NCBI GenBank assembly: GCA_050230475.1
Contig: JBFLGF010000124.1
Coordinates: 62,001 to 90,098 of the forward strand
Length of the DNA: 28,098 bases
From: Ancylonema sp.
Lineage: Eukaryota
Reading direction: 5' to 3'
Numbering within the stretch: the stretch's first letter is position 1; each line of letters begins with the position of its first letter. The notes under the pieces are model-generated. The model was not told the DNA's origin. It did no database searches and saw only the letters and a list, made by a program, of their open reading frames with translations. The position numbers were made by a program, and so were the translations under genes. Positions 1 through 28,087 of this stretch are shown here, one piece after another.

Positions 1-70
1 AAAGTTCCCAATATGATTGCCCATTTTGATACCCTTTTTTTTTTTATCCTTTTGTCGACCTCCTTTACAG

Positions 71-1219
71 GTGCTTGTGGTTAACGACTGCGCGCTGCGG
101 ACGCGGGCCACGAGCAAATGGACGGTCATGATTGACGTGGACGAATACATCAACGTGGCGTCCCCCCCCCATCACCTCCTCCCATTTTTGGAGAGCCCTT
201 TGGTTAAGGGCCGTCCGTGGGTGACCATGGGCAGCATGACGTACAAGACCGATGCCTGCGCGGTCAGGAATGGGGAATGGGGAATGGGGGATGCATGCTA
301 TAGGAAAGGGAGGAGAGGCAGAAGGGGAACACCGTTTGGTGGAATGGATAGTGAGCATAAGAGTCCAGTTTTTTTTTTTTTTTTTTAATGGTAGTATCTG
401 TGTTCATTTTTATGGTTTGAGAGCTGAGGGGAGGTTTGAGTGATGATGTTGAGTTCATTTTTGGTTTGGTTTTGCAGGGATCATCGCCCAACCAGTGGCC
501 CATTGAGCGGATGGTATTTCAGGACCCAAAAATATATTGCAAGCATGCAGAAAAATATGTCAGGTTGGGAACCACCCCTCATTATTTTATTTTTATTTTT
601 TGTTTTCTCCCCCCTCCCCCTGTTGGATGTATGTGTGCCTTTGTGGAGAATCATGAGCTCGCATATGTTGATTTGCATTTGTTCATTTCTGCATTCATTC
701 GAGTACGTTCGGTTTGTGGTCGGTGTTGCAAGTTCGAGTGAGATAGGTGTTGGAGTTGTTGGATGGTGAATGGTGAATGTGAACATGTCATGCGTGTTTG
801 AGTTCGGTTATGCACAGAATATGAAACCATATGATTACAAAAAGAGTTTCAATTCGACTGCTAAGGGGGCCAAGATTGATGTTCCAATGGACTCAAAGTT
901 TTTTTTTTTTTTTTTTTCTGGGTTGTATTTACATTGCAGTACGGAGCTTTGCCTGAAATGGGACGGCCATAGGAAGTACGTCATTGACCCTCGCAAAGTG
1001 AATCTTTTGCAAATTCATCAAGTGATGGAGTCGAACGAGTTGGGATTGAATGCATTGAGTACAAGCATTCATGTGAACCATTATCGAGGGCTCGGGATCC
1101 GGAACCATGAGTTATGCAAGGATGAAAAGGCGACACCTTACGACCACGTAAGGAAAGGTCTTGTGCGAGATTCGAGCGTGGCAAGAATGGCCTTGTTGGC
1201 TCGACGAAAAGCATCATGA
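71..1219 (+). CDS. Glycosyltransferase family 92 (galactan beta-1,4-galactosyltransferase/GALS-like), last three exons 71-262, 478-563, 940-1219; 5' part lies outside the window
   Basis: Spliced translation gives VLVVNDCALR...KWTVMIDVDEYI (GT92 NDC...DxDE motif), WPIERMVF and GHRKYVIDPRKV...IHQV...NHYRG. The GT-AG introns have matching phases and the gene ends at TGA 1217-1219. Confidence 0.8.
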
Positions 1220-2007: not shown

Positions 2008-2182
2008 TTTCACAACAGTTGCCAGGAAGAAAGGATTTCAGATTGGTTCTACAGTAACAGGACGAATCACACAAGACTTTGAGATTGTGTTCTAGCAACC
2101 TAGCAACCCGCTTTTACCCTATCCAACAATTGTGACCAGAAGTGAACAAATACTCTAACAATCGAATCATGATTGAACTCAC

Positions 2183-5690
<3,508 letters not shown>

Positions 5691-8926: not shown

Positions 8927-10035
8927 TGTAATACATGTATTGGTCTATGTTTTTATGAAAAATCGATATCACTGTTTATCGCTTTTGGAGGGGGGGAACA
9001 AAAGTACCCAGGGAGGGGGTGTTAGTTTTTAGGGTTTGTCAAATTTAATTGTTATATCGATTTTTGTGATTCCGGGAAACTTAGCTTTAGTTTTGTCGTT
9101 ATTCAACAAATGCCGGCCGTAGTACTTGTTGCAATGATTGTGTCGATAAGTTTGGCCATCTGGCACAAGTGTCGATACGAATAGGTGATGTGGCAGAATA
9201 CTCAGATGTCATTTGTGTTGACCGAGTAGTTTCGATATTAGTATATATTTGACTAAGAAGCGTCATCGGTCACTCGACTATACAAGGTCTAGCCTTGCAT
9301 GCAGAATTTTGTAATCAATACTTTCTACTTCAAACTTGCACTTTTGTTGTGTCGACGCTTGTAATGACGTGAATACTTGATTCCTTAGAGTTGAAGATAA
9401 GTGTGCTTTATTCTTGCATCGATGGCAGAAGGAAGCACTCACACACATACACCATGTGTTTCAAAGACACACGCGATATGCTCTCGCTTTAGTTTTTCGG
9501 TGCTATGTGCGATACGTTCATTTATAGAAAAATCGAAATAAGTACCGCGGTAGTTGTCAACCGTTTGATTAACATTTACCGGTCAGAGTATGTTTCCTAG
9601 ACGTATGTAACACTAAGTAGTATGCGCTCGCTGCAAACGACTTGGTTGAAGTTAGTTTTTTTTCCAATTCCTCTTCAACTGCTTCGGTCCCTGATATGAT
9701 CCATCGTGTTGTTATAAAACATGTCCGGAACTCGATTCGTAAACTCCCGAACCTTTGGGGCCACCTGTGCTTTTATTAGTATCGTTCCTATGTTGCTTTC
9801 TAAGTGAGACGTGATACACTCTTTATTCAAAGCTTGTGGGATTCACATGTATTCGCACCCTCTTTTTAATTTTCACAATATCAACAACTTACCAAAGTCC
9901 AAAACACTTTCTTCGGTAACAGATTGCACATACCATTGCATGAGTTTGGGTCTAGCTGCCAATCTAGAATCTTATATGCACATCGGACCGTCGGCTTGTC
10001 ATGACCAACGCTCATCAATGTTGTTGAGGTGCCCT

Positions 10036-10566
10036 CGTCGTAGTGTATAGGCTCGTGTCGTTGTAATGCGTGCCAGGCACCGTTGTGTAGGAACGAGTCA
10101 GTATATTCAGGCTTTCAGACTTTTGTGTCGTTATAACGGAGTGGAGAGTTCGATACGCCCCAGTAGGAGTAAGGTGAATGGGAAGCTTTTGCGGATCTTC
10201 TTAGGCTTGAGCATGATTGGCGCCCCCGCTTATTTGACCAATCATTGAGTTAGGGGTTCCAATAGCCATTTGAGTGGACGATCGGGATTGAACGGCCACT
10301 AGTTCATCACCGTCAGTTAGACTTTTGGCCTAGCCGCCACTCTTCGAGTGGGTTGGTGCTCCACCATTATACGTCTAGGGTTGACTCTTGTATTCACTTT
10401 CGACAACATTTCCCGGACGACTTAATTCAATATCTTGTGTACGTGCAAATCGTATTTTCTCTGCGCAATCTATTATTGTGTCGTAGCTGGAACACCTCTG
10501 AGCCTGCTTGTGCGCTAGTTACGCTTCGCGTTTTCGGCACCCAGAGCTTACCTTGCTTTGGATAGT
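10036..10566 (+). repeat. Terminal repeat A, copy 1 (~530 bp)
   Basis: Near-identical to 19170-19707 from GTCGTAGTGTATAGG to CCTTGCTTTGGATAGT. A hand count gives roughly 20, mostly transition, substitutions plus small indels. Confidence 0.95.
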
Positions 10567-10580
10567 TGTTGTCGGAAAGT
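10567..10580 (+). promoter_or_regulatory. Primer-binding site, self-complementary (Tf1/sushi-like)
   Basis: TGTTGTCGGAAAGT directly follows repeat A1. It is the reverse complement of ACTTT(T)CGACAACA at 10396-10408 inside A, about 28 nt downstream of a TATA-like TTATAC (10367-10372). Confidence 0.7.
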
Positions 10581-10766
10581 CGAACCACGCGGATCGGATG
10601 CTTCAGTGGTCCTGCTTGGCCATGAATGTCCTGGTCACGTAATAGAAGTCCCAATTCTGGGAGGTTTATCCGGCATTCACCGGAAAGCATTCACTGGGGC
10701 TATCATTCCCCTCAGTCAGAATTATCATAAGAGCTGGATACGAATTACCAGCTCGACTTTGAAGCC

Positions 10767-13700
10767 TTGAACGAGTCTCTTCGCAACTTGCAACACGCTC
10801 CATCTTCTCCTGATTCTCTCTCTTCGGCGACGTCAGCTGGCAATTTCTCGGCAGCGGACGACGACGACGACGGGATGTCGGAGCCAGTAATTCCCAAATA
10901 CAATGGGGAGCTGGGGAAGCAGCAAGAGTCTTTCTTCACACATGTGCGCACACATTTCAGGCACATGTGTCTGCGGAAGGATCGAGTGCTACAATCTATG
11001 GAGGGCTACGGGCAACTGGAGTTTGTGGATATGGACTTGCGGACTTTTCTGGGAACAGACGCGCTTCCCATCCTGGACCTGTTCCTACTGGACGCTCAGA
11101 ATATTCCAGCAGCCAGACCTGAGCGTGCGGTCGCTCAAGCGCGGGCTACTGCGCGAGCTGGTTTCCGCAACTATAGAGCTGATTGGATGGAGGCGGATCG
11201 GGCGCATAAACCCGCAGTGCCAGCTCCTGAGCCCGACGACATCAACGATTTCTTTCGAGCTCTACGCCGACGATTCCAAACCAACTGCGGTGAAGCCTAC
11301 GCAAAGCTGCTGAACTTGAGGCCAGAAGCTGGCGACTCCGTCCACACTTTATTTGTACGAGTGGACGAACCACCATCCGCCACAGAAGCGGTCGGTATGA
11401 CTACACCTGTAGACAACGCTCTCCGCTTCTACCATTTCCTGCCATAACCGACGAAGACCATCATCACGCCGGACTACAATGCAGAGGAGAAGCGTTGATG
11501 GGAGCAAGATCCGAGACTACCTCCGATGAGTCGAGAAGAAGTTCGCGACATGGCGCAGCGAGCCGAAAACGGGGCTCAGGAAGTGGGAGCTCAATACAGG
11601 AACCTCGGCCTGTCATTGACTCCACTTGGAAAGCATCTGCAGCCGCCTCCGCGCCAGATTCCTCTTCCTTCTCCCTTCCTCCCTGTCTACCAAACCCCTG
11701 CCCCTGATCTTCCTGGCGTCTACACGCCTCCACCAGATACCAGGACGTGCCACATTTGCGGCCAGCCAGGACACGTGCGAGCCAACTGCCCTTACAAACA
11801 GACGGGTGTGCCACAAGGACAACCTAGAAGCCAGCCACCATTGAAGCAGTCGTCACCTGGAAGGAAGAGTCAGCAGTCGGGGCAGCCTTCTACAGCTCCG
11901 GATGCCGGTGGTGGACCCTCGCGACCACGGTCCCAGATCACCGACCAGGATCGGACGCCCGGAGCTTCATGCACCTATTGCAAGCGGCAACATCACACGG
12001 AGGCGCAGTGCTTGACCAAGAAGCGTGGGCTGCCACCAAATCCTTCTCCTGTCCCCTATCCTGCCTACACGCCAGGACAACACCTTCAGCAGAATGAGGT
12101 GCCAGCGCAGGAAGGGACCTTTTATCAGCTGTCGGAGCAGCCTGTCACCGGCAGCGAGCAGCCGCAGTTCCACGTAGAGGAGCAGGTCTCATTCAACAAC
12201 GCCGGGTATGGTTACTACCTGCGTGGGCTGGCGCCGCGAGCTGAAAACAGGGCCCGGGTAATTGGTGTCCACCCCGAGCCTCAAAGCCTTGGGTTGGACC
12301 TGCCTGGAAGTCACCTGCAGCCGTTTCAGCGCCAGACTCCTCTCTTCGTCCTTGACAACCTGAGCCCTACCTCTGATGCAGCGAAGGGTCGCTGCCATGA
12401 AGACAGTCTGCAACGACAACCAGAGTCCCCAGAAGATTAGCCGACCTCTACAAGAGACGAGGTGCGTGCGTTGGCGCCGCAAGCTGAAAACAGGGCCCGA
12501 GTAATTGGTGTCCACCCCGAGCCTCAAAGCCTTGGGTTGGACCCGCTTGGAAGTCACCTGCACCCGTTTCAACGTCAGCCTCCCCTCTCCGTCCTTAGTG
12601 ACCAGCATGCTGCAGACGAAGCAGCCCTTCGTCGATCTGCAAGAGTCGCAGCAAGGGACGCAGCTGGATCACGCGTGGTGTGGTATGCAGCCTTGAAGGA
12701 ACCAGTGGCAGTGGAGGCGGATGCAGGCAGTAGCAGCCGTTTTGGAGAGCGCCTGGCCAGCCGGCCTTTGATCCGTCCTTTGCAGTCTACTCTAGAATCA
12801 TTTGATGTCGGGCCTTCACCTACTCCATCCATGAGACAGCCGCCACAGCCGGTACCAGCAAGCCCTTCGCTCCCAACATCTGCACCCATTGCCACCGGAC
12901 GAGGTCAAGGGCCAGACTACGGTAGATCAGGTGATACAACTAAGTTACCCCTGAGTTTTCGTCAAAGGGATTTCGGTGATTTAGAGCCGGGTACTACATT
13001 AGAAAATGAACCCCCTTCAGATATTTTTTCAGAAGAACGAGGCATATTTGCTTTGAGTGAGATTGCAAATCATGTGAAGAGTGCACAGGCAGCAGCTAAG
13101 GTAGATCAGTCATCATTGTACCAGATTTGGCACGTCAGTCGGGCAGTGTTAGATAAGGCAGGGACAACTGTTTGCCCAACTCCTGTAGAACCTGAGCAGG
13201 GAGTATCTAACTACTTGTGCTCCAGTGCCTAGGCTCGTATGACACAAAGCAGTCCCACCACCCACACTGGGGGTGGGGCTCTTCTCTCAGCCAAGATCCC
13301 ACGGGAAAAAAAAGTTGAGCAAGCGGTGTCTAACCATCTAAACTCAGGGAGAGAACTAAATGAGCAGCCGGCACAGAGTAGTGCCTCCCTCTCTACATCG
13401 GTTGGTACTCTCTTCCCGGTCTTTCTGACTCCGTCCCCTTGTGACCAGATGCATTCCAGTTTGTCAAAGGTAGGGAAAACAGCGTTGAGCGGTACCACAT
13501 TGATTTCTGATAGCAGGCTGTCTAGGGATACAGAGAAGCCTCCATTTTGCATGCTAGCTAGAGAGTCTGCTGCTAGCGTGCCTTGCAAAATTCCGGTCCA
13601 ATCAACAGCCAAGGTTAGGTTTCAAATGCCCAGCCAATTTGTCTCCCTCGGTACGGCAATAGAAGGAAAGAAGGTACAGTCATCAATCCCAAGTCCAGGA

Positions 13701-14666
13701 TTAGGTCCGTCCAGTCTGTCCTCAAGGGTGAATCAGTCCAGTCTTGCCTCCAGTCTACGTAGGCCAGGTACAACTGGTCATCCATATGACCAGCAGGTAG
13801 GAATCCCAATAGACCTGAACAAGGGAGGACGGGCAGCAGTGTCTAACTGTCTGGGCCAAGGGAGAAAAAGTGGTGGGGATTCGGCACAAGTTGTCCTATC
13901 TGACTTTGGGGAAATCACAACTTTCCCGTCTCTACCAAGAGCCCCAGTCAAAAGTATGAATCCATTTGTAAAACATGAAGGACACGAGGGGATGCCTAAT
14001 CTTACTTGTTCCCCTGACTTCGGTCCTTTCCCTCCACCTGTCGACCTTTCCCTCCCTTTCTCTCCAGAGCCTGCGACTCCCTCAGCAAGGTTTCGTCATT
14101 CAACTGGGATTCTGTTGAGGTGGACCCAGCCTTTGTGGAGAAGATCCGTACTCCACTCTCTGGTCAGTTCGGACAGCAAACAGCAAACAGCAAGGGTAAG
14201 TCAGGTACACTTCCCGACCTCGTTCATGCACTGCAACACTTGCAACTACATGAAGATGTGGAAACATCTTACCATTCCCAATGAAGCTGGAGCGGTCACC
14301 ATCAACGGAGTGGTTCCCAAGGATGGCATCGTGCTGGACACAGGCGCCAACTTTTTCATGCTAGGTAAGCCGGTCGCAGACCAAATGGGATTGACAGATG
14401 CAGATATGAATGAAGGCATCACATACACAGTTGCATCAAGTGCATTTGCTAAATGCCGTAGTGTCACAAAGAAGAAAGTAGCCATCATATTGCTGCCCGG
14501 AACTATGCACGAAGTCAAAGCCTTCTTGCATGTGCTGGTGGACAACGCCACTAGTTATGATGTATTGTTAGGAGCCCATTTTGTCAATTGGGTGACTGCT
14601 TGCATCAACTTCATTGATTCCTACTGGAAGATCGTGCCAGATTGGAACACACGCACCTTCTCTTGA
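10767..14666 (+). pseudogene. gag: Gag (two CCHC-type zinc knuckles) + long Pro/Ser-rich spacer + aspartic protease, in one frame with four premature stops
   Basis: ORFs 10767-11447, 11526-12440, 12462-13232 and 13239-14666 share a frame. They contain CHICGQPGHVRANC, CTYCKRQHHTEAQC and retropepsin motifs IVLDTGAN...YDVLLG. Probable ATG at 10875. Confidence 0.85.
12220..12597 (+). repeat. Imperfect ~130-bp direct repeat, period 243 bp (in frame)
   Basis: LAPRAENRARVIGVHPEPQSLGLDLPGSHLQPFQRQ (~12220-12353) versus LAPQAENRARVIGVHPEPQSLGLDPLGSHLHPFQRQ (~12463-12597). Confidence 0.9.
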
Positions 14667-15390
14667 CCTTTATGTCACTCCAGACCAGCTGAGAGAACGT
14701 GTGGATGCAGGTTTGCTACAGAACTACGCAGGTGATGCAGGAAGTTACACTTCAAACAACGGTGAGGTAGATGTCATGCGCAGCTTAGCCGATCAGTGGC
14801 AAGCTCAGGCGAATCTGCTAGAGGATGCTCGTGAGGATATCGCTGCCACCGAGACCACTTGGTTGCTTGCCACTCCTGCCCTGCATCTTGCTACTCAACC
14901 TCTCGAGGACCTGGTGCAACACCGTGATCTGGTAAAAATGCATGTGGTGCAACTTCGAAACTGGCTGTCCCGTCATAACATGGGCAGCCGTGAAGGCCTT
15001 GTGCCATTGTTGTTTGCTCGTCGCAACCAAGTCTTCCGTGCAGCTCTGCCATTTCTCGAGCAGCTGGACCTCGACGTGGCCAACCAGACTGCCGCAGAGG
15101 AACGAGCCAGACGTGCACAAGGCATCATCCCTGAACCTCAACCAGCCCCGGTGGTGCACTTCAGCCAAGAGTATCAGGAACTCGCCCGACTCAGTCAGCG
15201 TGCCAACGTCACCTGGGCCTTTCGAGAGACCAGGGCCAACCAGCAACTGATAAAGCACCTGAATGCCACGCAGCCTCCCATCCCGACAGGTGAAACAAGT
15301 CCCCCTTTACCCCCATGGACTGGACCTAAAGCTCACCGCGTCCAGCCCATCAATATTTATATCCAATGCCTCACACCTGAGCAACAGTCT

Positions 15391-16345
15391 CATGGGGTTC
15401 ATATCATAGAGGTGTGTGGAGGGGTAGGATGCCCGAAACCGGTTGAAGCATTGGAAGCAGGTTTACTTGTGTATAAGTACACTTTCATTGATATAGACCC
15501 ACATGTGCATGTTGTTGTGCGAGTGTTCTTCCGCAAACTTCGTCTCCGCTATCCTCATCTTTTGCCTGCTTTTGCCCTACATGGTTTTGATGCACGTCTG
15601 CCACAGGATGTGCGTTTGATCTCTAACCTGCAGTTGGCCAACTTTGTGGCCCGCCATGGCCCTGTCGATATGTTTGGGGCTGGGTTTCCTTGCCAACCGT
15701 TTAGTGGTGCTGGCCCCAACCGTGGCATCCAAGATGCTAGGTTTCAGGTGTTTTTTGAAGTCGCTCGCTTGCTTAAATGGTTTCAGGACAACCAGAATGG
15801 CAGGCCAGTGTTATACTTGCGTAAAAATGTTTGCATTCGTGATGATGCCCCCAAAGTTGTGCGTGATGCGGATGCTTTGATCAGTATAGCGTTTGATGCT
15901 TGTTTGGTAGGAAGACTGTCCCACCGATACCGTCGGTACTCTCTGGACTAACATGATGTCGCCAGCAGCCCTACGTTGTCTCCTTCCTCCTAACCAACCC
16001 CTGACCAACCTCACCACTGTGTTGGAAGAAATCCATACCACAGCGCCTGTGCAGTTCACGGACAGTCCTCCCCATAGGATCGTCAACGTGCTTGGTCAGG
16101 AGCGCCGCGTTCTGCCCACCCTTGTCTCTTTTCCCAATAGTCATGCGTTGCGCCCCTCTGGCAACCGTCCTGGCCCTGGCCAGCTCTACAACCACGAGAC
16201 TCATGGGATGGGCCAACCATAGCCGAGAAGGAGCGGCTAATGGGCTTTGAAACAAATGATATGACGGTGGTCCCACTGTCTCCCTTGCCTCCCGCCACCA
16301 GATGATCGGCCAGGCCATCGACCGGCACGTGCTGCGCTGGTTTGG
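15391..16345 (+). pseudogene. C5 cytosine DNA methyltransferase domain embedded in pol (frameshifted)
   Basis: Motif I-like IIEVCGGVG, motif II FIDIDP, motif III PQDVR, motif IV GAGFPCQPFSGAG (catalytic Cys codon 15691-15693), motif VI KNV (canonical ENV), motif VIII HRYRRY, motif IX KERLMGF (~16227), motif X RHQMIGQAIDRHVLRWF (16293-16343). Confidence 0.9.
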
Positions 16346-16719
16346 CGGCATTCTTTCCTTCCTTCACCCCCGCTAGGGCTCAGACCCCACCCTGGGCCTC
16401 ATGTCTGCACGGCAGGCTCTGAGCGGGGGGGAACTGGGAGCGGGGGGGGGAAGAAGAAGAAGACCGGGACAAACAAACTGCTTTGCGCATAATGGAGTTT
16501 TTCACACTGCACTACAATGCAGACGAGCGAGAATTTTACTATGATGGAGAGGAACGCCTACATCTCCACAAGGCCCACTTGTGCGTGCAAGACTAGATCC
16601 GGTCGTTGCAGCATCAACAGCTGCTGCGAGGAGAGCGCCTTCAAGAACTCCTTCACGATCCGCAGCCACTCATGGCTGCTGCAGGTGAGGATGCTGCGTG
16701 GAAACTGGGGGGGGGACTA

Positions 16720-17160
16720 AATCCTGAAGAAACAGAAGACTCAACCAACTTTTTGGAAAAGCACACGGGTGCCTTTGCCTATTCAATTGCTGATCTGGGG
16801 GGGTTTACTGGACCTGCCATGGAGATTCCTCTCACCACTGACAAACCCATCTTCTCGCATGCTGATAAGCTAGGGAAGACAGAATGGGACTTTGTATAGG
16901 AAAACTGCCAAAAACTGTAGAAGCAGGGGCTCATCAGATTATCTTCTCAGTCCAAATATGCCTTTGCCACTGTGGTGGTGCGGAAGCGGGACGAGTCAGG
17001 CGCTTACATTGACTTACGTCAGTGCGGTGACTATCGTCCCGTGAACCTTTACACTGAGCTGGGCTCGCTAGTCCCTCATTCTGCAGGAATATGATTTCAA
17101 AATCAAGCACACCCCGGGTGTCGCCAACGCTGTTGCAGATTGCTGTAGCAGGTTTCCATT
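16720..17160 (+). pseudogene. pol: N-terminal fragment of Ty3/Gypsy reverse transcriptase joined by a deletion to the C-terminal end of RNase H
   Basis: GLIRLSSQSKYAFATVVVRKRDESGAYIDLRQCGDYRPVN (RT start) jumps at ~17060 to WAR*SLILQEYDFKIKHTPGVANAVADCCSR (RNase H end). No YxDD motif is present. Confidence 0.85.
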
Positions 17161-17564
17161 GCCATCTAGTTATGATGAGTTTAGAGAGAAGAGAGAAGAA
17201 TTGGGGACTATTTGTTATGCTGATGTACAAGTGCAGGATGAGCTGGTGTTAGGCCCTGCTACTTAGCGTTTCACGCAACAACCCTTCCTTGCACCACAGC
17301 TCCCCTGTCTGCAGTCTCTCTCTCCCTAGTTTCCCCCACAGCTGTGCCCGCAGCCGGAGTTTCCCCATCGTCAGACGCTGCCTCTACTCCTGACATTTGG
17401 GCAGACACACCGGTTCTGGAGTTCCTAAAATATCATCGCCATGCCCCGGACTCTACTCCAGCACAGCGCGACAAGGTGTATAGAGGGGCTTTAGGATATC
17501 AGTGGCTGGGGGGGAATGTATATAAGGTGTATCCGGGTGGTATCATGCTTCTCATCCCTCTCAC

Positions 17565-18625
17565 GGGTGCATCGGGAAATGGGACACTTTGGGGTCAACC
17601 GTGTACAGGGTCTCTTGCAGAAAAACTACTACTGGAAGGGCATGGAATCTGATGTCCGTGGCGTGATCGGCAGCTGCAACTCTTGCGCCCGCGTCAAAGC
17701 CGCCATTCGAGATCCTCAACGAGAGCTGCAACCCCTTCCTATTCGCGGCCTCGGGTATCGTTGGGGCGTGGACTTCGCTGGTCCTTTTCCGGTAACCAAA
17801 CGAGGTGTATGTGCTGGTCCTCATCGAGCATTTCACAAAGTGGGTTGAACTGGTGCCATTGCCTGACAAGTCTGTTGCTGGTACTCCATGGGCTTAGGTA
17901 GAGTATGGTCTCACTCGCATGGGTGCTCTTGCTGAAGTAGTAACTGATCAGGGCTCCGAGTTCAGGGGTGAGTTTCAAGATGTGCTAACCCATTTCAAGA
18001 TTATGGCGACCATCGTCTGGCCTCTCACCAGCACCCTCAGGCAGATGGGTTGTCCGAAAGGATGGTCCTAACTATGAAGCAGGGCCTCCGTAAGACGCAG
18101 CTGGAGCGCGCGGCCACGGATTGGGACCTTGTCTTGCCTTATGTTGCTACAGGGTACAAGATGACGCAGCAGAAAGCCCTGGGCTACTCGCCCTACTACA
18201 TCCTCTTTGGGCGTCACCCCATCTTCCCTGCCCGAATCCAAGCGCTGGAGGGTCAATCAATGCCCGGCCTGGATGACCCAGAAGCCGTGCGTTTCTTCAT
18301 CGAGGAACGCTCGCAGATCTTCCAGCAAGTGCTGCCCCTGACCATGCGCAATCTCGCCATCGCCCAGCACCGGGACAAGACGCAGTTTCGCCTAGTCCGT
18401 GGCCCTCCATGGGACAGAGCCAAGGAGGAGGTGGCTTCAGGCGATTTCGTGTTAGTCAAAAGGAAACCTTTGGCGTCTCTAGACGTCCCCACCGACCCTC
18501 ACATCCTTCAGGTGGTGCGAAAGAAGGCCAGTGGAGTGGTGGTGCTTCAAGGACAGGATGGCGCGCGCATAGAGGAGCAGGCTAAAAACGTGCCCCCCTG
18601 CAGCCTATCTGTCATTGACAATTAA
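17565..18625 (+). pseudogene. pol: Retroviral-type DDE integrase (HHCC zinc domain + rve core), frameshifted
   Basis: HREMGHFGVNR...YYWKGM...CNSCAR; RWGVDFAGPF (D); IEHFTKWVELVPL; VVTDQGSEF (D); HPQADGLSERMV (E); WDLVLPYV...GYSPYYILFGRHP. Confidence 0.9.
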
Positions 18626-18802
18626 ATCTACCCGGAGCGGTATTTCCGTAGGGACAATACCTATTGCCGCGAGTGTGGTAGTCGGGAACGCGAGGAATCT
18701 ATGGTGTTGTGTGATCGCTGTCAGCAGGGGTTCCACATATGGTGTCATACACCCCCCCTGCCAGATATCCCGTTGGGCTCTTGGGCTTGCCCGTACCATT
18801 AG
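18626..18802 (+). pseudogene. PHD finger at the integrase C-terminus (same frame, separated by one TAA)
   Basis: CRECGSREREESMVLCDRCQQGFHIWCHTPPLPDIPLGSWACPYH* has PHD C4HC3 spacing with His as the last ligand and the conserved Trp. Confidence 0.88.
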
Positions 18803-18947
18803 TGAGGGAGACTAGTGAGGTGAAGTTGAAGGCATGGACTGTAGGTGAGCAGAGAAAGTTTACTTCTGCAAATTTGCAACCTGTAGTTAAGTTCAGATTC
18901 TGTTTTTCTTGAGTCTAGACTTTGTGACATTTCACTTTCACAAGTCT

Positions 18948-18957
18948 AGAGGGGGGG
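18948..18957 (+). promoter_or_regulatory. Polypurine tract (plus-strand primer)
   Basis: AGAGGGGGGG immediately precedes the first base of repeat B1. Confidence 0.75.
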
Positions 18958-19169
18958 AGTTAAAAACAATTTCAGCACTTGTTGTGCGTGGGTGGTGTGT
19001 TGGGATATACTTGGGGTATTTGGACTTAGGGGCAATAGTATGGGTTAAGGGAACGTGTGTTTATACTTGGGGGTGATTTGGGAGGTACGATTCAAACATT
19101 ATAGCTTGTAGTTTTGTACCATGCAAGACATTGCGTGTGTTGTTGTGAGTATTTGGTAAACGATACGGC
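18958..19169 (+). repeat. Terminal repeat B, copy 1 (~210 bp)
   Basis: AGTTAAAAACAATT...TTTGGTAAACGATACG, near-identical to 19708-19914. Confidence 0.95.
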
Positions 19170-19707
19170 TGTCGTAGTGTATAGGCTCGTGTCGTTGTAA
19201 CGCGTGCCAGGCACCGTTGTATAGGAACGAGTCAGTACATTCAGGCTTTCAGACTTTTGTGTCGTTATAACGGAGTAGAGAGTTCGATACGCCCCAGTAA
19301 GAGTAAGGTGAATGGGAAGCTTCTGCGGATCTTCTTAGGCTTGAGCATGATTGGCGCCCCCGCTTACTTTACTTGACCAATCATTGAGTTCGGGGTTCCA
19401 ATAGCCATTTGAGTGGACGATCGGGATTGGACGATCGGGATTGAACGGCCACTAGTTCATCACCGTTAGTTAGACTTGTGGTCCAGCCGCCACTCTTCGA
19501 GTGGGTTGGTGCTCCACTTTTATACGTCTAGGGTTGACTCTTGTATTCACTTTTCGACAAAATAATTCAATATCTTGTGTACGTGCAAATCGTGTTTTTC
19601 TCTGCGCAATCTGTTATTCTGTCGTAGCTGGAACACCTCTAGACCTGCTTGTGCGCTAGTTACGTTTCGCATTTTCGGCACCCAGAGCTTACCTTGCTTT
19701 GGATAGT
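19170..19707 (+). repeat. Terminal repeat A, copy 2
   Basis: Begins TGTCGTAG and matches 10036-10566. It has a duplicated GGACGATCGGGATT and a short deletion after CGACAA. Confidence 0.95.
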
Positions 19708-19929
19708 AGTTAAAAACAATTCAGCACTTGTTGTGCTCGGGTGGTGTGTTGGGATATACTTGGGGTATATGGACTTAGGGGCAATAGTATGGGTTAAGGG
19801 AATGTGTGTTTACACTGGGGCGATTTGGGAGGTAAGATTCAAACATTATAACTTGTAGTTTTGTACAATGCAAGGCATTGCGTGTGTTGTTGTGAGTATT
19901 TGGTAAACGATACGCTGCTATATACGTCA
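19708..19929 (+). repeat. Terminal repeat B, copy 2, plus a short unique tail ending TACGTCA
   Basis: Matches 18958-19166, then CTGCTATATACGTCA, followed by the TSD GCCCT. Confidence 0.93.
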
Positions 19930-20860
19930 GCCCTACACCAAAGTCGCGACCTTTCACCGTAATGCCTCCCGGTTTGGTGATGCAGGCACCTCGAGATTGG
20001 ATCCAATTGTTGATTGATACAATCGGGCATCCAAAATGCCCCTGCACCCTCAAGAGCAAGTGATGGTTTGCACTACGTTTGTGGTTTGTACTACAAAGTT
20101 TATAGTGTGGTGTGGTCCTCAGCTCATTTATCACATCATCCAAAAAATTGAGCAATATTTAAGCTTTAAAGCAACCGTTTGCAGTCATACATAGAATGTG
20201 ATGGTTGTACCGGATGATAGTGCTTGTTATCACAACGAACGAGATGTCGCAAAACCTAGAGAAAAACAATGATTTCTTTTGCTGTAAAAATGGCGACTCA
20301 AAAGCCATCCCCGTTCATATGAGTCAACATTTACTTTCCGATCTTGTGTTGATCACAATTGGTGACGTTAGATCGACGCCCTTTCATAACTCAAAGAAAA
20401 AGAACAAAATACAATGCCTCTAGACCACACACTTGACCACTAGACCTCTAGACCACCCACTCTGAACATGTGTGCAAGTGTGGTTTTGTGGATCATCCAG
20501 GAGAACGTGGACGATCATCTAATTGTTCTTCGTGAAACCTCCAATGGCAATTGTTTCTCAAACGACATGTGGACAAACGAGGAACATCTTGGCAATCAAG
20601 GTGACCACACATAAGAATGAGATGTATACACACCAAGCATTGCGCACAACGCTTTGCTAGTTACATCTTGCTGGGTCTCTATCAAACCGCCGTCTAATCA
20701 CCGCCACACAACGACAATCACATGCGGGTGTCCTCTTTATTTCTTCCACCAACCACATGGACACCTAGACCACATGGACACCTAAACGGACAATCTCGAA
20801 TCGAACTCGAGCTTGATGGTGACCCACTCACTTGGTCGACAAAGTAACGACAACTTCGTT

Positions 20861-23800
20861 CTATCTCTTGCGCGACCTTCTCCTCACCGAGTCCTGCACA
20901 ACGACACAACGAATGCACATTAGCATGACCGTACATTCACAATATCATGGCTGTACAATCACACCACATTCACTTGTCACCACACGAAGTCTATGGCTTC
21001 CCCCCAGAGTACCATCCTCGCCAATTTCTACTCTGCACAGATATGTAGACTCACGTACGGTGGCATAAAAACAAAAACACATCTTATTCATCGTTCATCG
21101 TTCATCGTTCATCGTTCATCGTTCATTGGTCAAAGTTGATAGATGATTGACAATTGACAATTGATGATTGTTGATCGATGATTCATGGCCCATGATTGAT
21201 GGATGACATCTCACCGTTGGCTCTTTCGTGTCTGGCAGTGCCACCTGTTCCCCCTTTCCAGATGAACCCTCCACCCCCTTCCCACCCTCTCCCTCTCCTT
21301 CCCCCTCCCCCTTGCTCTTCTTCTCTGCTCTACCCCCCTCCACTTCCGCCCCCCTTCCCCTCTTCCTCTCCCCCGCCTCCCCCTCCCCACCCTCCACTTT
21401 GGTCCCCAATTCTGGTGGAACGGGCTGTGGGCTCCAAATATCCCCCCCCCCCCCTGCGCTCTGCTTTGGATCTGGCGTGGCAGGTGTCACCTCCCCACCC
21501 TTCACCTTCACTGGGGTCAAGGACTGCTGTACTGGGGTGACTGGGGTTACTGGGGTGACTGCGGTACTCTTCACCGGGGTCCCCCCCTCCTCTCCCCCCT
21601 CCGTCTGCGCCCTCGTCCTTCTCGTCACCCTCCCCCCCCCCCCGCCCCCCCCATTCGCCACCCCCACCTCCGCAGCTGCACCCTTCTTCCCCTTCCTCTT
21701 CCCCCCCCCCCCTCCCGCCTCCTTTTTGGCCTCACCCTCTACTTGTACTTCTGGTTCTGGTTTTGGTTCCTGGACAGGGACAACCACCTCCTCTGCCTTC
21801 CCCTCGGCCCCCACCGCTGGGGGCTCTTGAGGCTCTTGGGGCTCGATGGGCTCTTCTTGTTTGGACTTCTTGCCCTCACCCCCCTCCTCCTCCTCCTCCT
21901 CTTCCTCCTCTCCCGCCCTCGTCCTCTTCTCCCCCCCCTCCCCTCCCACCCCCGACCCCTGCGTGCCCCCCTGGTCCCCCTGGGGGACAGTGGGAGGGGG
22001 AGGGGGAGTGGTAGTGGCAGTGGGGTTGGGGTTGGGTTTCGGCTTCCCTGTGGCATCCACCTCATCCCACCTCTCTTTCCTGAGGGCCACCTTCTCTTTA
22101 TCCCCGTCCTCGTACGCCACCTGGCAACCACAGCACACAAGGGGTGTTCAGTCACACCTCTGCATCTCGCATGAACTGGGGACTTAACATAAGCAAGAGT
22201 GTCATCCCAAAAAATTAAGGGGGAGAGAAAAATGTAATCATAGTCTCGTATTCGCAACGACGTGCTATTATATCTTTGTCCGCTTTAAAAAAAAAAAAAA
22301 AAAAAAGCAAACCAAGGCCAATGCAATTTGTGTTCTTAGGAAACCATCCAACCTATGGACGACAAAACTGTACGGGCCCCTGCCCAAAAGCCCCTCCCTA
22401 TTCCCAACCACATCCTGGATTGCATCAAAGTGTACCCAAAATTCGTGGACCATGCCAATGGAGAGGTGGGTATTTTCATGACCATTTTCCGACAAGTCAT
22501 GTGTGAAGGTGGTAATCGGGGTGACTCCGCAAGTTTCGGGTCTTAAATCTTTGAGAGTGCACATTCACTCGCAAGATAAGACCTTTGATTGGTGGTTGAT
22601 GCTATGAATAACGATATGATTAACGGTATGAGAAACGCAATGATTGCGTATTTTCTTGTATCATTCGTGCCAAGCACAACCTAAAACCAGCATCGGGAGC
22701 GTAGTGAAACCATGATTTCAAGACTTCGCTATTATAATCATCTCCTTTTATATGTCTTTTTTTTGGCTCCTAGGAACCAAAAATAGATACAAACAAAGTG
22801 GGGCCGGAAAAAATAAACGGGTAGTGACAGGTATTTGACTACATTCCCATTTCTTGTTTTCCTCTCAAGTGGCTTACTACCAATAAGAACAGTGTCTATG
22901 AATAACACATTTGGGTACATTCAGGTTATGCGTGGAAAGTGGACTGGGGACTGGGGACTGGGGGACTACGGACAGAGGGATATGATCCATGATCCATTCT
23001 GATTCCGTCTTACCGTGTGCTTCCCTGTTCTTGGGTTGTAGTCTGTGACCAGTCCTTTGTAGTACTTCTTATCCAGCGGCCACCACACGCGGATGCGCTT
23101 GCCAATCAAATCGGAATTGGCGCCCTTCAGAACAAAGGGAGGGCTCTGCACAGACTCACCCAAACAAAACAAAAAAAAAACAAAAAAAAAAACGTTATTA
23201 ATTCTTGTTTTGAATCTAGTTTTTTGTTTCTTTTGTTATTTTTCCCCTTGTCCCCTCCGGGTCTCTCCTTTCCTATTCTACTGTTGGAAGGACAGAAATA
23301 ACCGGAACCCACCCAGCCTCACTGCGTATCCTATCCTCCCTCCCTCCACTACCAAGTTCCAGTCACTCCACACTGCCCCTCCCCTTCTAACCCTTGCCCC
23401 CCTCTTCCCCCCACCTTCATCTCCTCCTTCACTTTCTTCCCCCCCTCCCTGGGTGTCCCCAAAGACGTCCGCCCTGTCCGCGTACGTATCCCGTCCCCTG
23501 CCTCAGGCGTCCCTGTGAGTGCCAGCTGTGAGTCTATGGCTGCTGACGCACTTGGTGCGCCCTGGGAGCCCTGGGAGCTCTGGAGGGCGGGGAGTTTGGA
23601 GGAGCGGGTGGAGGTGGAGTGGGGGTGGGGGGGGTGGGGAGAGGATGGAGTGGATGTGAGGTGTGTGAAAGAAGGCAACCAGGAGAGAGGGAATATTCCC
23701 TTGGGGCGCTGAGTGTACAGTACCGTGGGAAGTCGGAGACTCTCTGGCAAATCACTTCCATCTGACTGAAACAAAGGAAAACACCCCACCACACCTACCA

Positions 23801-26800
23801 ATGTAAAACTTGTATCCCCTCCCCTCCCCCTCCTCCCTGTGACTCTGACCGTGTTTGTGAGTGGGGGTGACGTTCCTGGGTCTTGAAACAGGGAGGCGGG
23901 CAGCATGATGACTCCAGGGTACTCCCCGGAAACGGTCTTGTTTTTGCACAGTTCCTTGGCCAGGAGGAGACCGATGTCGCAAAGGATGTACAAATTCTGG
24001 AGGGGAAACGAAAGAAAAAAAGAGGCAGAATTCTGAATCCGGTTGTTGTTTTTTGTTATTTTGTTTGTTAGTATTATTACAATGAGAATATAAATCATCA
24101 CCATTTTTTCTATAATACATGAATGTTTGTGCTGTTATTATTATTATTATTATTAATACTATCATTACAATTATTATTATTAATAATATCATTACTATTC
24201 TTGCTATTATTACTATTATTACTATTATTAATATTATTACTATTAATAATATCATAACTATTGTTATTATTGATGTTATCATTACTATTATTGCTATCAT
24301 CACTTGAATGAAGTCTAGGCGTCTGTTGTTGTTGTTGCATGTTATATTCTTTCTCCATCCTCTGGTATTCGTTTGGGGGATTTCCCCTTTCAACAATCTA
24401 CAGACAAAAATATGATTTGCAACTTGAAGAAAAGAAGAAGAAAAAAAAGAAAGTCCCAAAAAAAGAAGTCCCGAATCGAAAGCCCAGTGCACCGCAAGGC
24501 AAGAGAGTGGGGTCAAGATCCCTTCGTCAAGATCCCACCTTCGTTTTGGAGGCATCAATGGCGTCATTCGGCACCAGTTTTATTTTCCGGAACAGCGTGA
24601 GGATGAGAGGCAAATTGTCCACCTCCTCCTTCTTGCCACCATCCGGAATGTCAAGGTGCAGAAGAGCGCGAAGCATGGCACCCAAATTGCTGGAAGAAAA
24701 GCGTTTAACAGGTGAAACCACCCCTCCTCCTTCTCAGTTCAGAGGACACCTTCCTCCCTTACCCCCCCTTGGGTAGACGACACTCAATAACGGGATGAGT
24801 CTTGTAATCAACTGCTGACGCCTTTTGGGATCGTCATCGGGTACTTACTAGAACCAACCAGAACATGTTGAAAATGTACAAATTTACAGAAGTATAGATT
24901 TACTGGGGTAAAAATCTACAAAGGTAAATCTACAGAGGTGCAAATCCCCCATACCCACCTCCCAGTCTTAGTACCAGGGGGGGTCTTCAACCGCCAGTCC
25001 CATTATAAAAATAATAATTAAAAAAAAAAAAAAACAATCCAGCCCCCCCAGGAACCAATCGCGTCCACCCCCCCCCACTCACACTTTGAACGGTTCGTAG
25101 AACTGCGCCCCCTCGTCTTCCTCCGGGAAATCCGGGTGGTGCGCCAACACGTGCACCAGGTAGGGGAGGACGAACTCGGGGTGAAGAAGCACGAGATCGG
25201 AGGGGTCTGCCGCCCCCCCCGCCTGGCGCTGAACGACCTCACGACGGGCGGTGTCCACAAAATCGGCCAAATACTTCCAAGACTGAGAGGGGGGAGGGGG
25301 GAAACACCCTTCTTCTTCACTATCTCCCACTGCTTTGGTACCTCCTCTACCCTCATAACTCCTCTCCTTCAATGTCTTCTCTTCCTTAGAACATCCTCTC
25401 CTTCAACAGTTCCTCTCCCTTCACAACTCCTCTACCTCACTACCTCCTCTCCTTCAATACCTCCTCCCCCCACCTGTGCGCTGTTGTCCTTATCCACATC
25501 CATGGCGTCCATCGCCAGCGCACACGCGTACTTGTGGCTCTAGCTGTGGTCGTGCAGGTAGCGATGCACGGCGCCCACAAACTGCTGCCTGACCTGCAGG
25601 CATGGGTCCTGGGCGGTCATGACCGAAAGGGACAAGAGTTTTGGGTGGGAGGAGGCGATGACGTCCTCGTGGCGACGGGAGAGGTGGAGGAGGCATTTGG
25701 AGGCGGACAGGCGGACGTGGGCGCGATCCACGTCACTGGGGGGAAAGGGAAACCCGACACCCGAAACCCAGAGGAAAAAGGTAAGACGCGATGCGAATTG
25801 GGGACGGGAGTGGGGGAGTGGGGGAGGAGGAGGGAAAGAATGGGGGGGGGGAGGGGGGGATGGGGGCGCGAAGGGGAGGGGGGGAAGGGGGAGAACGAGG
25901 GGGGGAAGTGGGAGGTGGGGAAAGGGGGAAAGGGGGGAAGGGGGGAAGGGGGAAGGGGGAAGGGGGAAGCAAGAAGCGAGAAAAGGGGGCAAATAGAGGG
26001 GAGAAAGGGGGAAGGTAGAAGGCGAGATGCGAATAAAGGGAGTAACTAGAGGAGAGAAAGGGGGAAGCGTGGGGTGTGGTAGGGTCCAAGTGCGTGTCCT
26101 CCTTACGATGCTGTCATTTCCGGCTGGTCTCCCGTGGGCACCAGCTGTTCCATGAGCCTCAGCAGTCCGCTCAGTCTTGGGCGCACTGCCCCCTCCTTGT
26201 GAGGGAGGAAGGGGGAGACGAGGAGTTTGAGTCCCTTGCACTTGAGTTTGCAGGTGGAGGTGGGGTGGTCCCACTCGAACTTCTTTGGGCGACCATCGCC
26301 GCCTGCAGGGGTCGAGTGGGACTGAGGGCACGGAGAGGGGAGGGGGGGGGGGGAGGGATGGGGTGGGGTGGGGTGTGGTGGGGTTAGTGGCGGTATATAC
26401 GTACGAACAACTGTATGGATGTGGGTACTTATATTGTGGAACATTATGTATACACACTCAAACCTCGCTAGAAGAAACTTCGTTAAAAGAAACTCTTCGC
26501 TGTAAGAAACCATTTTTTATTTTTTTAAAAGGTTTTTACACTCAAAATGTGATATGTATGTAAGAAACATTCGCTGTAAGAAAACATTCGCTACAACTTT
26601 TTAGGTTTCTTTTATCGAGGTTTGAGTGTACATATGTACAAGTTTATGTGTATATATGTCTCTGTACATACAAACATACGGGAAAAGAACAAACACACAT
26701 ACGAGCTTCACACACATACATACATACATACATACATACATGCTTCCATACATACAGGCCTACATACGACATGCATAGCCATGAATGTGTAGATAACCCC

Positions 26801-28087
26801 CATAACTCCCCCCCCCCCTTCCTCACGCTTTGTCTCTTGAACAGCCCCTGCACCACAAACTTGATGATCTCGTTCTCCCTCAACTCAAACACGTGGGGCG
26901 CCCAGTGAGCAATGCTCTCCAGGGAACGCAGCACGGTCAGCAGCTGGGCGTCCTGGGCGTGGGCCAGGGAATCCACCAGGATCTGGTAGAGCCCTGGGAG
27001 GACCTGGTGGGAGATGGACATGGAGGCCAGGGTGGCCACCGCGTGCTTGGCCTCCTTCCGGGAACCTTCCAGGGCAGACTTCTTCAGGAGCTCAACAATG
27101 GTCCTGGAAACAAACCCCACCCCTCCTCCCTTCATCATTTTTCTGTAGCTCAAATTAAACCCCACCGAAAAGACGAACGCAAGGTGTCTTTTTTTTTTTC
27201 TGAGTTTTTTTTTCCCCCTTACTGGTCTTCCCCCCCCGGGGTGGTCTTCATGAGCGAGGACGCATGGGACACGACCAGCATGGCTCCGTCTTTCCTGCTC
27301 TGGTTCCCTTCCTTGATCATGGAAAAAAGGTCTTCCATGTGGGGCTCAAGGAGGGAAGGGAAGTGTTTGGAGACCTCCTGGAAGGAAAGAGACGAAAGAG
27401 TTGAGGAAGTACAGAATGTCAAGAAAATAAATACTGAATACTGAAGAAATGAGTACTTGATACAAAATGCATAACCCTGGATAATATGAATTTGACTCAG
27501 AATACTGAATACAGATTGCTGAGTACTGAATAGTGAATAGTGAATGCTGGATGACCTACAGCGCTCGTCTAGTGTGTTCGGCTTTGCTGTACCATCCTGG
27601 TTACGGTTACAGTTAAGGTTACGGTTACAATTACAGTTACGGTTACGGATACGGTTATGGTTATGGATATGGTTATGGTTACAGTGGGTAGTCGGGAAAG
27701 GTAGAGGAGAGAATGGAGAGGTACAGTCCCCCACATCAAATTTCAAAATCTGTCACAGGAGGGCGTCGTCCTCCCATCATCCATTACATCACCCCTTACA
27801 ACACCCTTTCATCAACCCTTACATCCCCCTTACATCACCCTTCTATCCCCCTTTCCCCATCCCTGCATCCCCCCTACATCCCCTCTCTCCCTCTCCTTTC
27901 TCACCGCCAGCAGTTTCATGGCCGCTCCTATGAGTTGCGGTGTGTCGTCCAGTTCCTGGCCCTGTAGCAGTTTGAAGACGGCCACCAAGTGGTCCGCCCC
28001 AAATAGAGTGAAGGACAGTTTGGTGGCCAGGGTGCGCAGTAGGGGAGACAGGGGGTGCTTCTCGCCCATGCGCTTCAACAGGTCGTC
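20861..28087 (-). CDS. PDS5: Sister chromatid cohesion protein PDS5 (plant type, HEAT repeats + Tudor), 3' part. Exons approx. 28087-27905, 27377-27223, 27103-26827, 26321-26107, 25735-25474, 25282-25083, 24689-24539, 23996-23850, 23765-?, ~23579-23415, 23145-23014, 22120-21215, 20893-20861
   Basis: LEGSRKEAKHAV, DRAHVRLSASKCLLHLSRR, AQDPCLQVRQQF...KYACAL, HPEFVLPYLVHVLAHHPDFP, NLYILCDIGL, Tudor LIGKRIRVWWPLDKKYYKG...H/VAYEDGDKEKVALRKERW, then a low-complexity tail. One in-frame TAG at 25540-25542. Confidence 0.9.
21087..21126 (+). repeat. (TTCATCG)n heptamer repeat in the last PDS5 intron
   Basis: Seen directly in the sequence. Confidence 0.85.
24134..24300 (+). repeat. Degenerate (TAT)n microsatellite in a PDS5 intron
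   Basis: Seen directly; it produces spurious poly-Ile and poly-Asn ORFs. Confidence 0.9.
27599..27682 (+). repeat. Degenerate (GGTTAY)n hexamer repeat in a PDS5 intron
   Basis: Seen directly in the sequence. Confidence 0.85.

Follow-up and report, generated by a model that had tools for sequence, protein, structure and literature searches.

Retroelements of the PAT and Ngaro type integrate from a circle, and elements of the IS3/IS30 type transpose via circle junctions. Retrovirology has long disputed whether the circles formed by elements with long terminal repeats (LTRs), usually regarded as dead ends, can serve as integration substrates. The dispute rests so far on human immunodeficiency virus (HIV) and foamy-virus integrases cleaving junction palindromes, the cleaved sites being palindromic LTR-LTR junctions (foamy virus and HIV-1; PMC1180852, PMC1905944). 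Self-priming of reverse transcription is described in the LTR retrotransposons Tf1 and Tj1 (PMC4600332). In Klebsormidium nitens, the element KnitGypsy-Dnmt3 (de Mendoza et al. 2018, PMC5890265) has, according to the legend of Fig. 4c, Gypsy domains and repeats arranged as in DIRS, an arrangement defined in the same paper as A-coding-B-A-B. A chromatin survey (bioRxiv 2021.11.30.470311) presents fusions of PHD fingers with retrotransposons, but not these repeats in the text available. The name KnitGypsy was found in no other paper of the searched literature, and none of the titles and abstracts listed dealt with an internal integrase site of such elements, with subscription papers and Repbase outside the scope. 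The element considered here lies in a stretch of 28,098 nucleotides from Ancylonema sp. (contig JBFLGF010000124.1 of assembly GCA_050230475.1, positions 62,001 to 90,098 of the forward strand), hereafter the window, of which it occupies positions 10031–19934, target-site duplications (TSDs) included. It is interpreted as a self-primed Gypsy-type element that would produce a two-LTR cDNA, with LTRs of the form B-nn-A (nn, two nucleotides), and whose DDE integrase would open a palindrome in an end-joined, probably circular form of this cDNA; we put the probability of this reading at about 0.5.

The order of the element in the window is A1-internal-B1-A2-B2, all of it on the plus strand. Repeat A1 (10036–10566), which runs from an integrase half-site through the predicted promoter, R and U5, and repeat A2 (19170–19707) are identical in 493 of 516 ungapped columns (95.5%, BLAST E value 0). 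Repeats B1 (18958–19167, the start of the LTR defined by reverse transcription) and B2 (19708–19914) are identical in 197 of 207 (95.2%, E 1e-86). The split A...BAB arrangement described in the initial annotation is thus upheld by the alignments. The element is bounded by GCCCT at 10031–10035 and 19930–19934; within 19900–19960 the only GCCCT is the right copy, which directly follows CA, in agreement with the duplication annotated. The left end of A1 is CGTCGTAG and its counterpart in A2 is TGTCGTAG. The CG at 10036 with which A1 starts, instead of TG, is private to the window copy; the Troyka elements (CG...CG ends, 3-bp TSD; PMC12440569) were considered and ruled out by this, together with the TG...CA ends of the family and the 5-bp TSD. 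The polypurine tract (PPT; AGAGGGGGGG, 18948–18957) adjoins B1, as annotated, and together with the primer-binding site (PBS, 10567–10580) it delimits the LTR as B-nn-A. The junction A2|B2 (19707/19708) reads TAGT|AGTT, again as annotated, and is a plain join of the base preceding the PBS to the base following the PPT, i.e., it would be the end-to-end join of the ends defined by reverse transcription. The integration ends, TG (here CG)...CA with the TSD, are located instead at the start of A and the end of B, and the uncoupling of both kinds of ends proposed at first sight is borne out. In terms of Ty3/gypsy features, the TG...CA ends and the TSD (5 bp in the window copy, within the usual 4–6 bp) are present, and the two full terminal direct LTRs with the PPT before the TG of the 3′ LTR are missing, the arrangement being A...BAB with the PPT before B. 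The split direct repeats are a trait of the order DIRS (PAT, Ngaro).

The right end is formed by B2 plus 15 extra bases (19915–19929, the last letters being TACGTCA), with which the intact repeat spans 19708–19929. These bases are absent at B1|A2, which in the window copy reads GATACG-GC-TGTCG, without CA. The CA of the internal B|A site was removed from this copy by a 13-nt deletion at the end of B1, and the GC at 19168–19169 is the two-nucleotide spacer of the CA-GC-TG site. Since the 15 bases are absent there, the window copy's own repeat shows no CA|TG site.

The element was partly present in four of six listed sequencing runs, from two studies. Contigs of run X1, the possible source sample of the window, cover both flank junctions (9700–10064 with 0 other letters and 19901–20300 with 1), while no record spanning the B-A-B block and no empty site were seen among the run contigs. 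In X1, 10 contigs change from A to flank at the first base of A (flank agreement 0.43), and 11 change from B to flank at the end of B, after CGTCA (0.51); on both sides the flanks are long and unlike one another. The shared ends are a family trait of a multi-copy element, not a one-off, as would be expected from the initial annotation. All eight of the B-end-to-A-start joints listed consist of CGTCA (once CGACA), two bases and TG or TA, the two bases being AC in three, GC in two, and GA, GG and AT in one each, with an additional short deletion at one joint; the spacer GC was seen in run X2 too, and joints of this kind came from both studies. Judging from these joints, the internal site of the window's family is CA-nn-TG. 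The CA|TG site that had been suggested inside the repeat does exist, with the amendment that two nucleotides, commonly GC, separate CA from TG and that the site is deleted in the window copy itself. In both families described here, the boundaries of the insertions fall at a CA-nn-TG palindrome within the terminal repeat, which is very probably an internal integrase site.

A scan of metagenome contigs, in which the best 80 of 492 relatives were kept and duplicates then removed, yielded a second family with identical domain order and with repeats unrelated in sequence to those of the window. It includes six distinct elements with complete A...BAB (L129, L162, L170, L189, L193 and L200) and five additional B-A-B right ends. 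Thirteen distinct loci have right ends of the form PPT-B-CA-flank, one has PPT-B-nn-A-flank (L176), and in two right ends B is truncated; copies of the form A-int-B are about as frequent as A-BAB copies. A 4-bp TSD with at least three of four bases matching was found in all seven whole elements of the second family, versus 3 of 42 cross pairs (1 of 5040 permutations). The expectation that relatives would share A...BAB with TSDs of their own was thus confirmed in the six complete loci. These data also bear on the idea of an ordinary two-LTR element rearranged after insertion, or of a misassembly, which would agree with a B-A-B block spanned by no read and with the further deletions of the window copy. 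The flank junctions lie within contigs, the PPT adjoins B and the PBS adjoins A, and the layout recurs not only in an unrelated family but also in K. nitens (PMC5890265), all of which argues against that idea, already largely refuted and now scarcely credible.

The internal B|A spacer was of two nucleotides at 12 of 12 second-family junctions (AC in five, GT in four, otherwise GC or AT, every spacer being GC or differing from it by transitions). Derivation of the spacer from the donor flank was considered and dropped, the spacers being GC or transition products in both families. The B|A site was exact where the A2|B2 joins were ragged: only 2 of 11 joins were full, and 9 were short by 1, 2, about 7 or more than 100 bases, most often by 2 in an AT overlap; in this count the A end of five loci came from other copies. 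The divergences between A repeats and between B repeats co-varied (rho 0.82, n = 7 including the window, p 0.02); the sequence nearest to A2 was the A1 of the same element in six of six cases, and that nearest to B2 was the B1 of the same element in 6 of 10. Recopying of B2 from B1 at insertion would produce such a joint rise of divergences and such own-copy likeness. Some individual loci deserve a separate mention. L133:2702-11674 is a whole A-int-B that lacks A2-B2 and is flanked by a perfect TCAT duplication, a product that a 1-LTR circle, a double cut or recombination between B1 and B2 would give. In L125:1805-1929, B stops at CA and an inverted piece of A follows directly, possibly by autointegration or insertion into another copy. 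In L176:3510-3985, PPT-B-nn-A brings a full A end against unrelated sequence, without B2.

Concerning more distant relatives, 22 of the 30 other loci were evaluable, having at least 1 kb of sequence past the integrase. The motif G(A/T)CA-GC-TGTC was found in 14 of them, no more than 4 kb downstream of the integrase, versus 0.37 expected over all 30; none was found upstream of the integrase in these loci. The motif occurred 3 times in 1.09 Mb of viral contigs; the pattern scan of these contigs returned 120 chance loci and served as background only, and a protein scan of them found no relative. In the distant loci the palindrome lies 47–204 nt after a G tract, and L182 starts at the TGTC of the palindrome. 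Six of nine distant loci checked continue into long open reading frames, as collapsed assemblies would. A...BAB itself is established here for two families only. Contigs L151, L154 and L158 have terminal overlaps of 123–141 nt (circular assemblies); B and the palindrome occur once in each, and the open frames are long. They could be young families or real 1-LTR circles.

With respect to the primer, the family has an extra C at 10400 (12,669 of a depth of 13,451 in X1, and likewise in X2–X4). With this C, 10396–10409, the predicted 5′ end of the transcript, is a 14/14 complement of the sequence directly after A1 (10567–10580) and starts 30 bases past a TATA-like box at 10366. In the second family, a complement of 13–16 nt to the PBS was found 31–34 nt after the TATA in seven of eight copies, the same geometry with letters unrelated to those of the window. 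The PBS thus likely pairs, as in Tf1, with the 5′ end predicted for the RNA of the element itself, with the start placed by TATA spacing. The PBS-like sequence annotated after A1 keeps its position and changes its nature, as a self-priming site that is not tRNA-like. A tRNA primer was rejected, because the spacing from a TTCGA-like word to CCA is 3 nt too long and self-complementarity fits instead; there is no tRNA gene within the window.

The repeat layout, the common family ends, the TSDs, the two-nucleotide spacer and the domain content are directly visible, and a series of events that would lead to them can be proposed. Transcription would start in A1, at about 10396, and extend to R in A2. 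Reverse transcription, primed by the RNA's own 5′ end, would give an ordinary two-LTR cDNA, whose ends would then be joined, with the A|B junction created afresh at each insertion. As a transcript from A1 to A2 would yield a cDNA that never copies B2, both B2 and the A|B join would have to arise anew, in agreement with the raggedness of the joins and with the likeness of B2 to the B1 of its own copy. If both strands of CA-nn-TG were cut after CA, in a staggered fashion, the products would be CA-3′OH ends with 5′ overhangs of 2 nt. The insertion of 3′-processed CA ends by DDE integrases is established chemistry, although its application to this element is inferred, and cuts of this kind would match the ends and TSDs observed. 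Cutting of a 2-LTR circle at its left site would give A-int-B-nn-A-B, able to transpose again; a 1-LTR circle, or cutting at both sites, would give A-int-B, a predicted dead end because it lacks a 3′ R. That the joined cDNA is a free 2-LTR circle ligated by the host seems, from the sequences, an even proposition.

Several observations weigh against this mechanism. The A...BAB form accounts for just 11 of 25 resolved right ends, the remainder being the 13 PPT-B-CA-flank loci and L176, and in 4 of 10 cases B2 is closest to the B1 of another copy. The mirror form A-B-A-int-B was found in none of six elements, versus six of A-int-BAB, while a symmetric circle predicts equal numbers (two-sided p 0.03), and a lone A begins all eight resolved left ends, though 12 of the 13 B-only loci lack a resolved left end. 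The perfect PBS match of the window copy is just 8 nt long, a length reached by 425 of 5000 shuffles (not significant), and a TATA-anchored search detected self-priming in none of eight distant loci. The palindrome motif was defined post hoc, after a first look at the distant loci, and B2 was found in none of 17 distant loci searched, mostly collapsed or short contigs. Finally, the circle, the transcript start, the cDNA ends and the cleavage are all predictions from sequence. Regarding the mirror form, the left end was resolved in 1 of 13 B-only loci versus 6 of 11 B-A-B loci (p 0.02); with left ends so seldom resolved in B-only loci, this form may be hidden.

The absence of the mirror form (0 of 6) and the frequency of A-int-B (13 loci) could both be explained if the reverse transcriptase (RT) passed from the right end of the cDNA to its left end, giving, with no ligated circle, an over-length product B-att-A-int-B-att-A|B-att. 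The integrase would then pair sites 1 and 3 (A-int-BAB) or 1 and 2 (A-int-B), using the same internal site. Losses of 1–2 nt at the AT overlap, in 7 of 11 joins, are consistent with such a template jump, but the larger losses in L162 and L193 resemble end-joining. Routine jumps of this sort are not known to have a precedent for a Gypsy RT, and we consider this hypothetical jump rather unlikely, yet to be taken seriously. Another explanation is that integration comes first: the palindrome would be cut in one LTR of the linear cDNA, the half-sites inserted, and the outer ends joined on the chromosome by host repair. The final sequence, the TSD and the ragged A|B join would be the same, and the full A end against flank in L176 could be a failed join; however, each insertion would imply a chromosome break and the unseen mirror form is likewise predicted, and this order of events appears unlikely. 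Later recombination between B1 and B2 as the origin of A-int-B is neither supported nor ruled against by age: the median nearest-neighbour B identity was 0.947 in A-int-B and 0.933 in A-BAB, with no sign of A-int-B being older.

As to the coding content, a six-frame Pfam search of the window element gave matches on the plus strand only, namely CCHC, aspartyl protease, C5 DNA methylase, integrase H2C2 and core, and PHD. The domain order is Gag, protease (PR), C5 DNA methyltransferase (DNMT), RT-RNase H (RT-RH, mostly deleted here), DDE integrase (INT) and PHD finger. The gag region (10731–12440) is broken by stops and has a CCHC knuckle at 11748 (zf-CCHC, E 2e-4). The protease is at 14295–14582 (Asp_protease_2, E 3e-4, below the cut-off). 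A frameshifted C5 cytosine methyltransferase-like domain occupies 15301–16257 (PF00145, E 2e-9; also tblastn with the intact relatives P0011 and P0012), so that the element carries, by these matches, a C5 DNMT within a Gypsy Pol. Compared with P0011, the RT (N-terminal piece, 16687–17100, matching from residue 944) breaks off at residue 1068 and picks up at 1388; judging from this alignment, most of RT and RNase H, some 320 codons, is deleted at ~17061, the piece being fused at ~17061/17063 to the tail of RNase H. The integrase (17567–18622), with frameshifts and stops, displays HHCC at 17567–17690, the D regions at 17762 and 17937, the E region at 18047 and a GPY/F-like motif at 18440; its matches (Integrase_H2C2, E 4e-12; rve, E 3e-4) sustain the DDE type that had been assigned to it. 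A PHD finger (18665–18793; PF00628, E 1e-8) forms the C-terminus of the integrase. The window copy is dead. This, the DNMT, the PHD finger and the 15 extra right-end bases had escaped the initial annotation. The pol order PR-RT-RH-INT with a DDE integrase is that of Ty3/gypsy, RT-RH being whole in L129 and P0012. In the relative P0036, a degenerate methyltransferase-like stretch (~residues 700–1000) was placed by eye between RNase H and integrase, not between protease and RT. The window DNMT-like domain (15409–15830) has the catalytic motif PCQ versus ECQ in P0011, P0012 and L129, and its motif VI is KNV. A 134-nt internal duplication (12220–12353 and 12463–12596, 91% alike, 243 nt apart) lies in the gag-protease interval. 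At 17806–17807, loose ends in 6–15 contigs of three runs suggest a segment of the integrase region that is present in other copies and altered or missing here.

Thirty-eight relatives were found at E 1e-10, mostly RT-RH-INT-PHD, four of them with PF00145 and two bearing names from a green-alga genome. No named protein of K. nitens appeared among the matches, and no cluster name was found to link the relatives to that species. Among solved structures, the nearest to P0012 is Ty3 Gag-Pol (E 2e-94). In an integrase tree (FastTree, 79 rows, 18 redundant loci dropped), the window grouped with P0001–P0012 with a support of 0.99, while its grouping with the second family was unsupported (0.43). The repeat layout equals that of PAT and Ngaro (PMC4157794), and a tyrosine recombinase (YR) acting in trans could mobilise the element as it does for them, the DDE integrase being a passenger. 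However, no Pfam YR match was found in the six frames of the window element, in line with the initial annotation, nor in the six frames of L129; the TG...CA ends and the TSDs of 4–5 bp, of a length fixed per family, are DDE signatures, and the integrase is retained in intact relatives. We regard a YR in trans as highly improbable.

The neighbourhood of the element comprises a PDS5 gene with several exons (21100–27345, minus strand), which ends about 1 kb to the right of the element, exons of glycosyltransferase family 92 (GT92; 17–1219, plus strand) and a CaMKII association-domain gene (2100–2561, minus strand).

If the circle model is true, a form held to be a dead end would be a working transposition route. 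The genomes record a lineage with the end-to-end junction kept inside the integrated copy and, very probably, a conserved internal palindrome as integrase site, a defined substrate of 10–16 bp with clear predictions. In a broader proposal, whose odds we place slightly under even, an inherited GACA-GC-TGTC palindrome inside the LTR would have become the integrase site of a broad lineage of PHD-integrase Gypsy elements, spread over green algae and early land plants. The lineage would be obliged to pass through LTR circles (2-LTR giving live A-int-BAB, 1-LTR giving dead A-int-B), and software expecting two terminal LTRs would overlook all of it. DIRS-like split repeats can arise alongside a DDE integrase; LTR finders will miss or mis-bound such elements, and the palindrome is a simple marker of the lineage.

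In comparison with known systems, the layout has been in print once, unexplained (PMC5890265); the internal palindromic site, the TSDs, the self-priming and the sister form A-int-B are new. KnitGypsy-Dnmt3, compared by description only, shares the Gypsy domain set, the C5 DNMT in Pol and the DIRS-like A-B-A-B, whereas ends, TSD, internal site, primer, PHD and mechanism were not found in the accessible text of that paper. Ty3/gypsy elements (Metaviridae, e.g., Ty3) share the order PR-RT-RH-INT, the HHCC-DDE integrase, the PPT, the TG...CA ends and the TSD of 4–5 bp; here, in contrast, the integrated form lacks two full terminal LTRs, the integration ends lie 47–220 nt inside U3, and DNMT and PHD are added. 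The YR retroelements PAT/TOC1/Kangaroo and Ngaro have the same A1-B1-A2-B2 split direct repeats (PMC4157794), but the window element has no YR and possesses a DDE integrase, a TSD of fixed length and TG...CA ends. As in the window element, whose RNA 5′ end is predicted, the PBS of Tf1 and Tj1 is complementary to the start of their own RNA (PMC4600332), although their LTR ends are ordinary. Finally, the foamy-virus and HIV-1 integrases and the IS3/IS30 elements provide the likeness of a DDE enzyme acting on a circle, which it opens at a palindrome where two ends meet; in foamy virus and HIV-1 the cut is at the junction of the two ends, while here it would be at an inherited site inside the LTR, with the end-to-end junction retained in the integrated copy.

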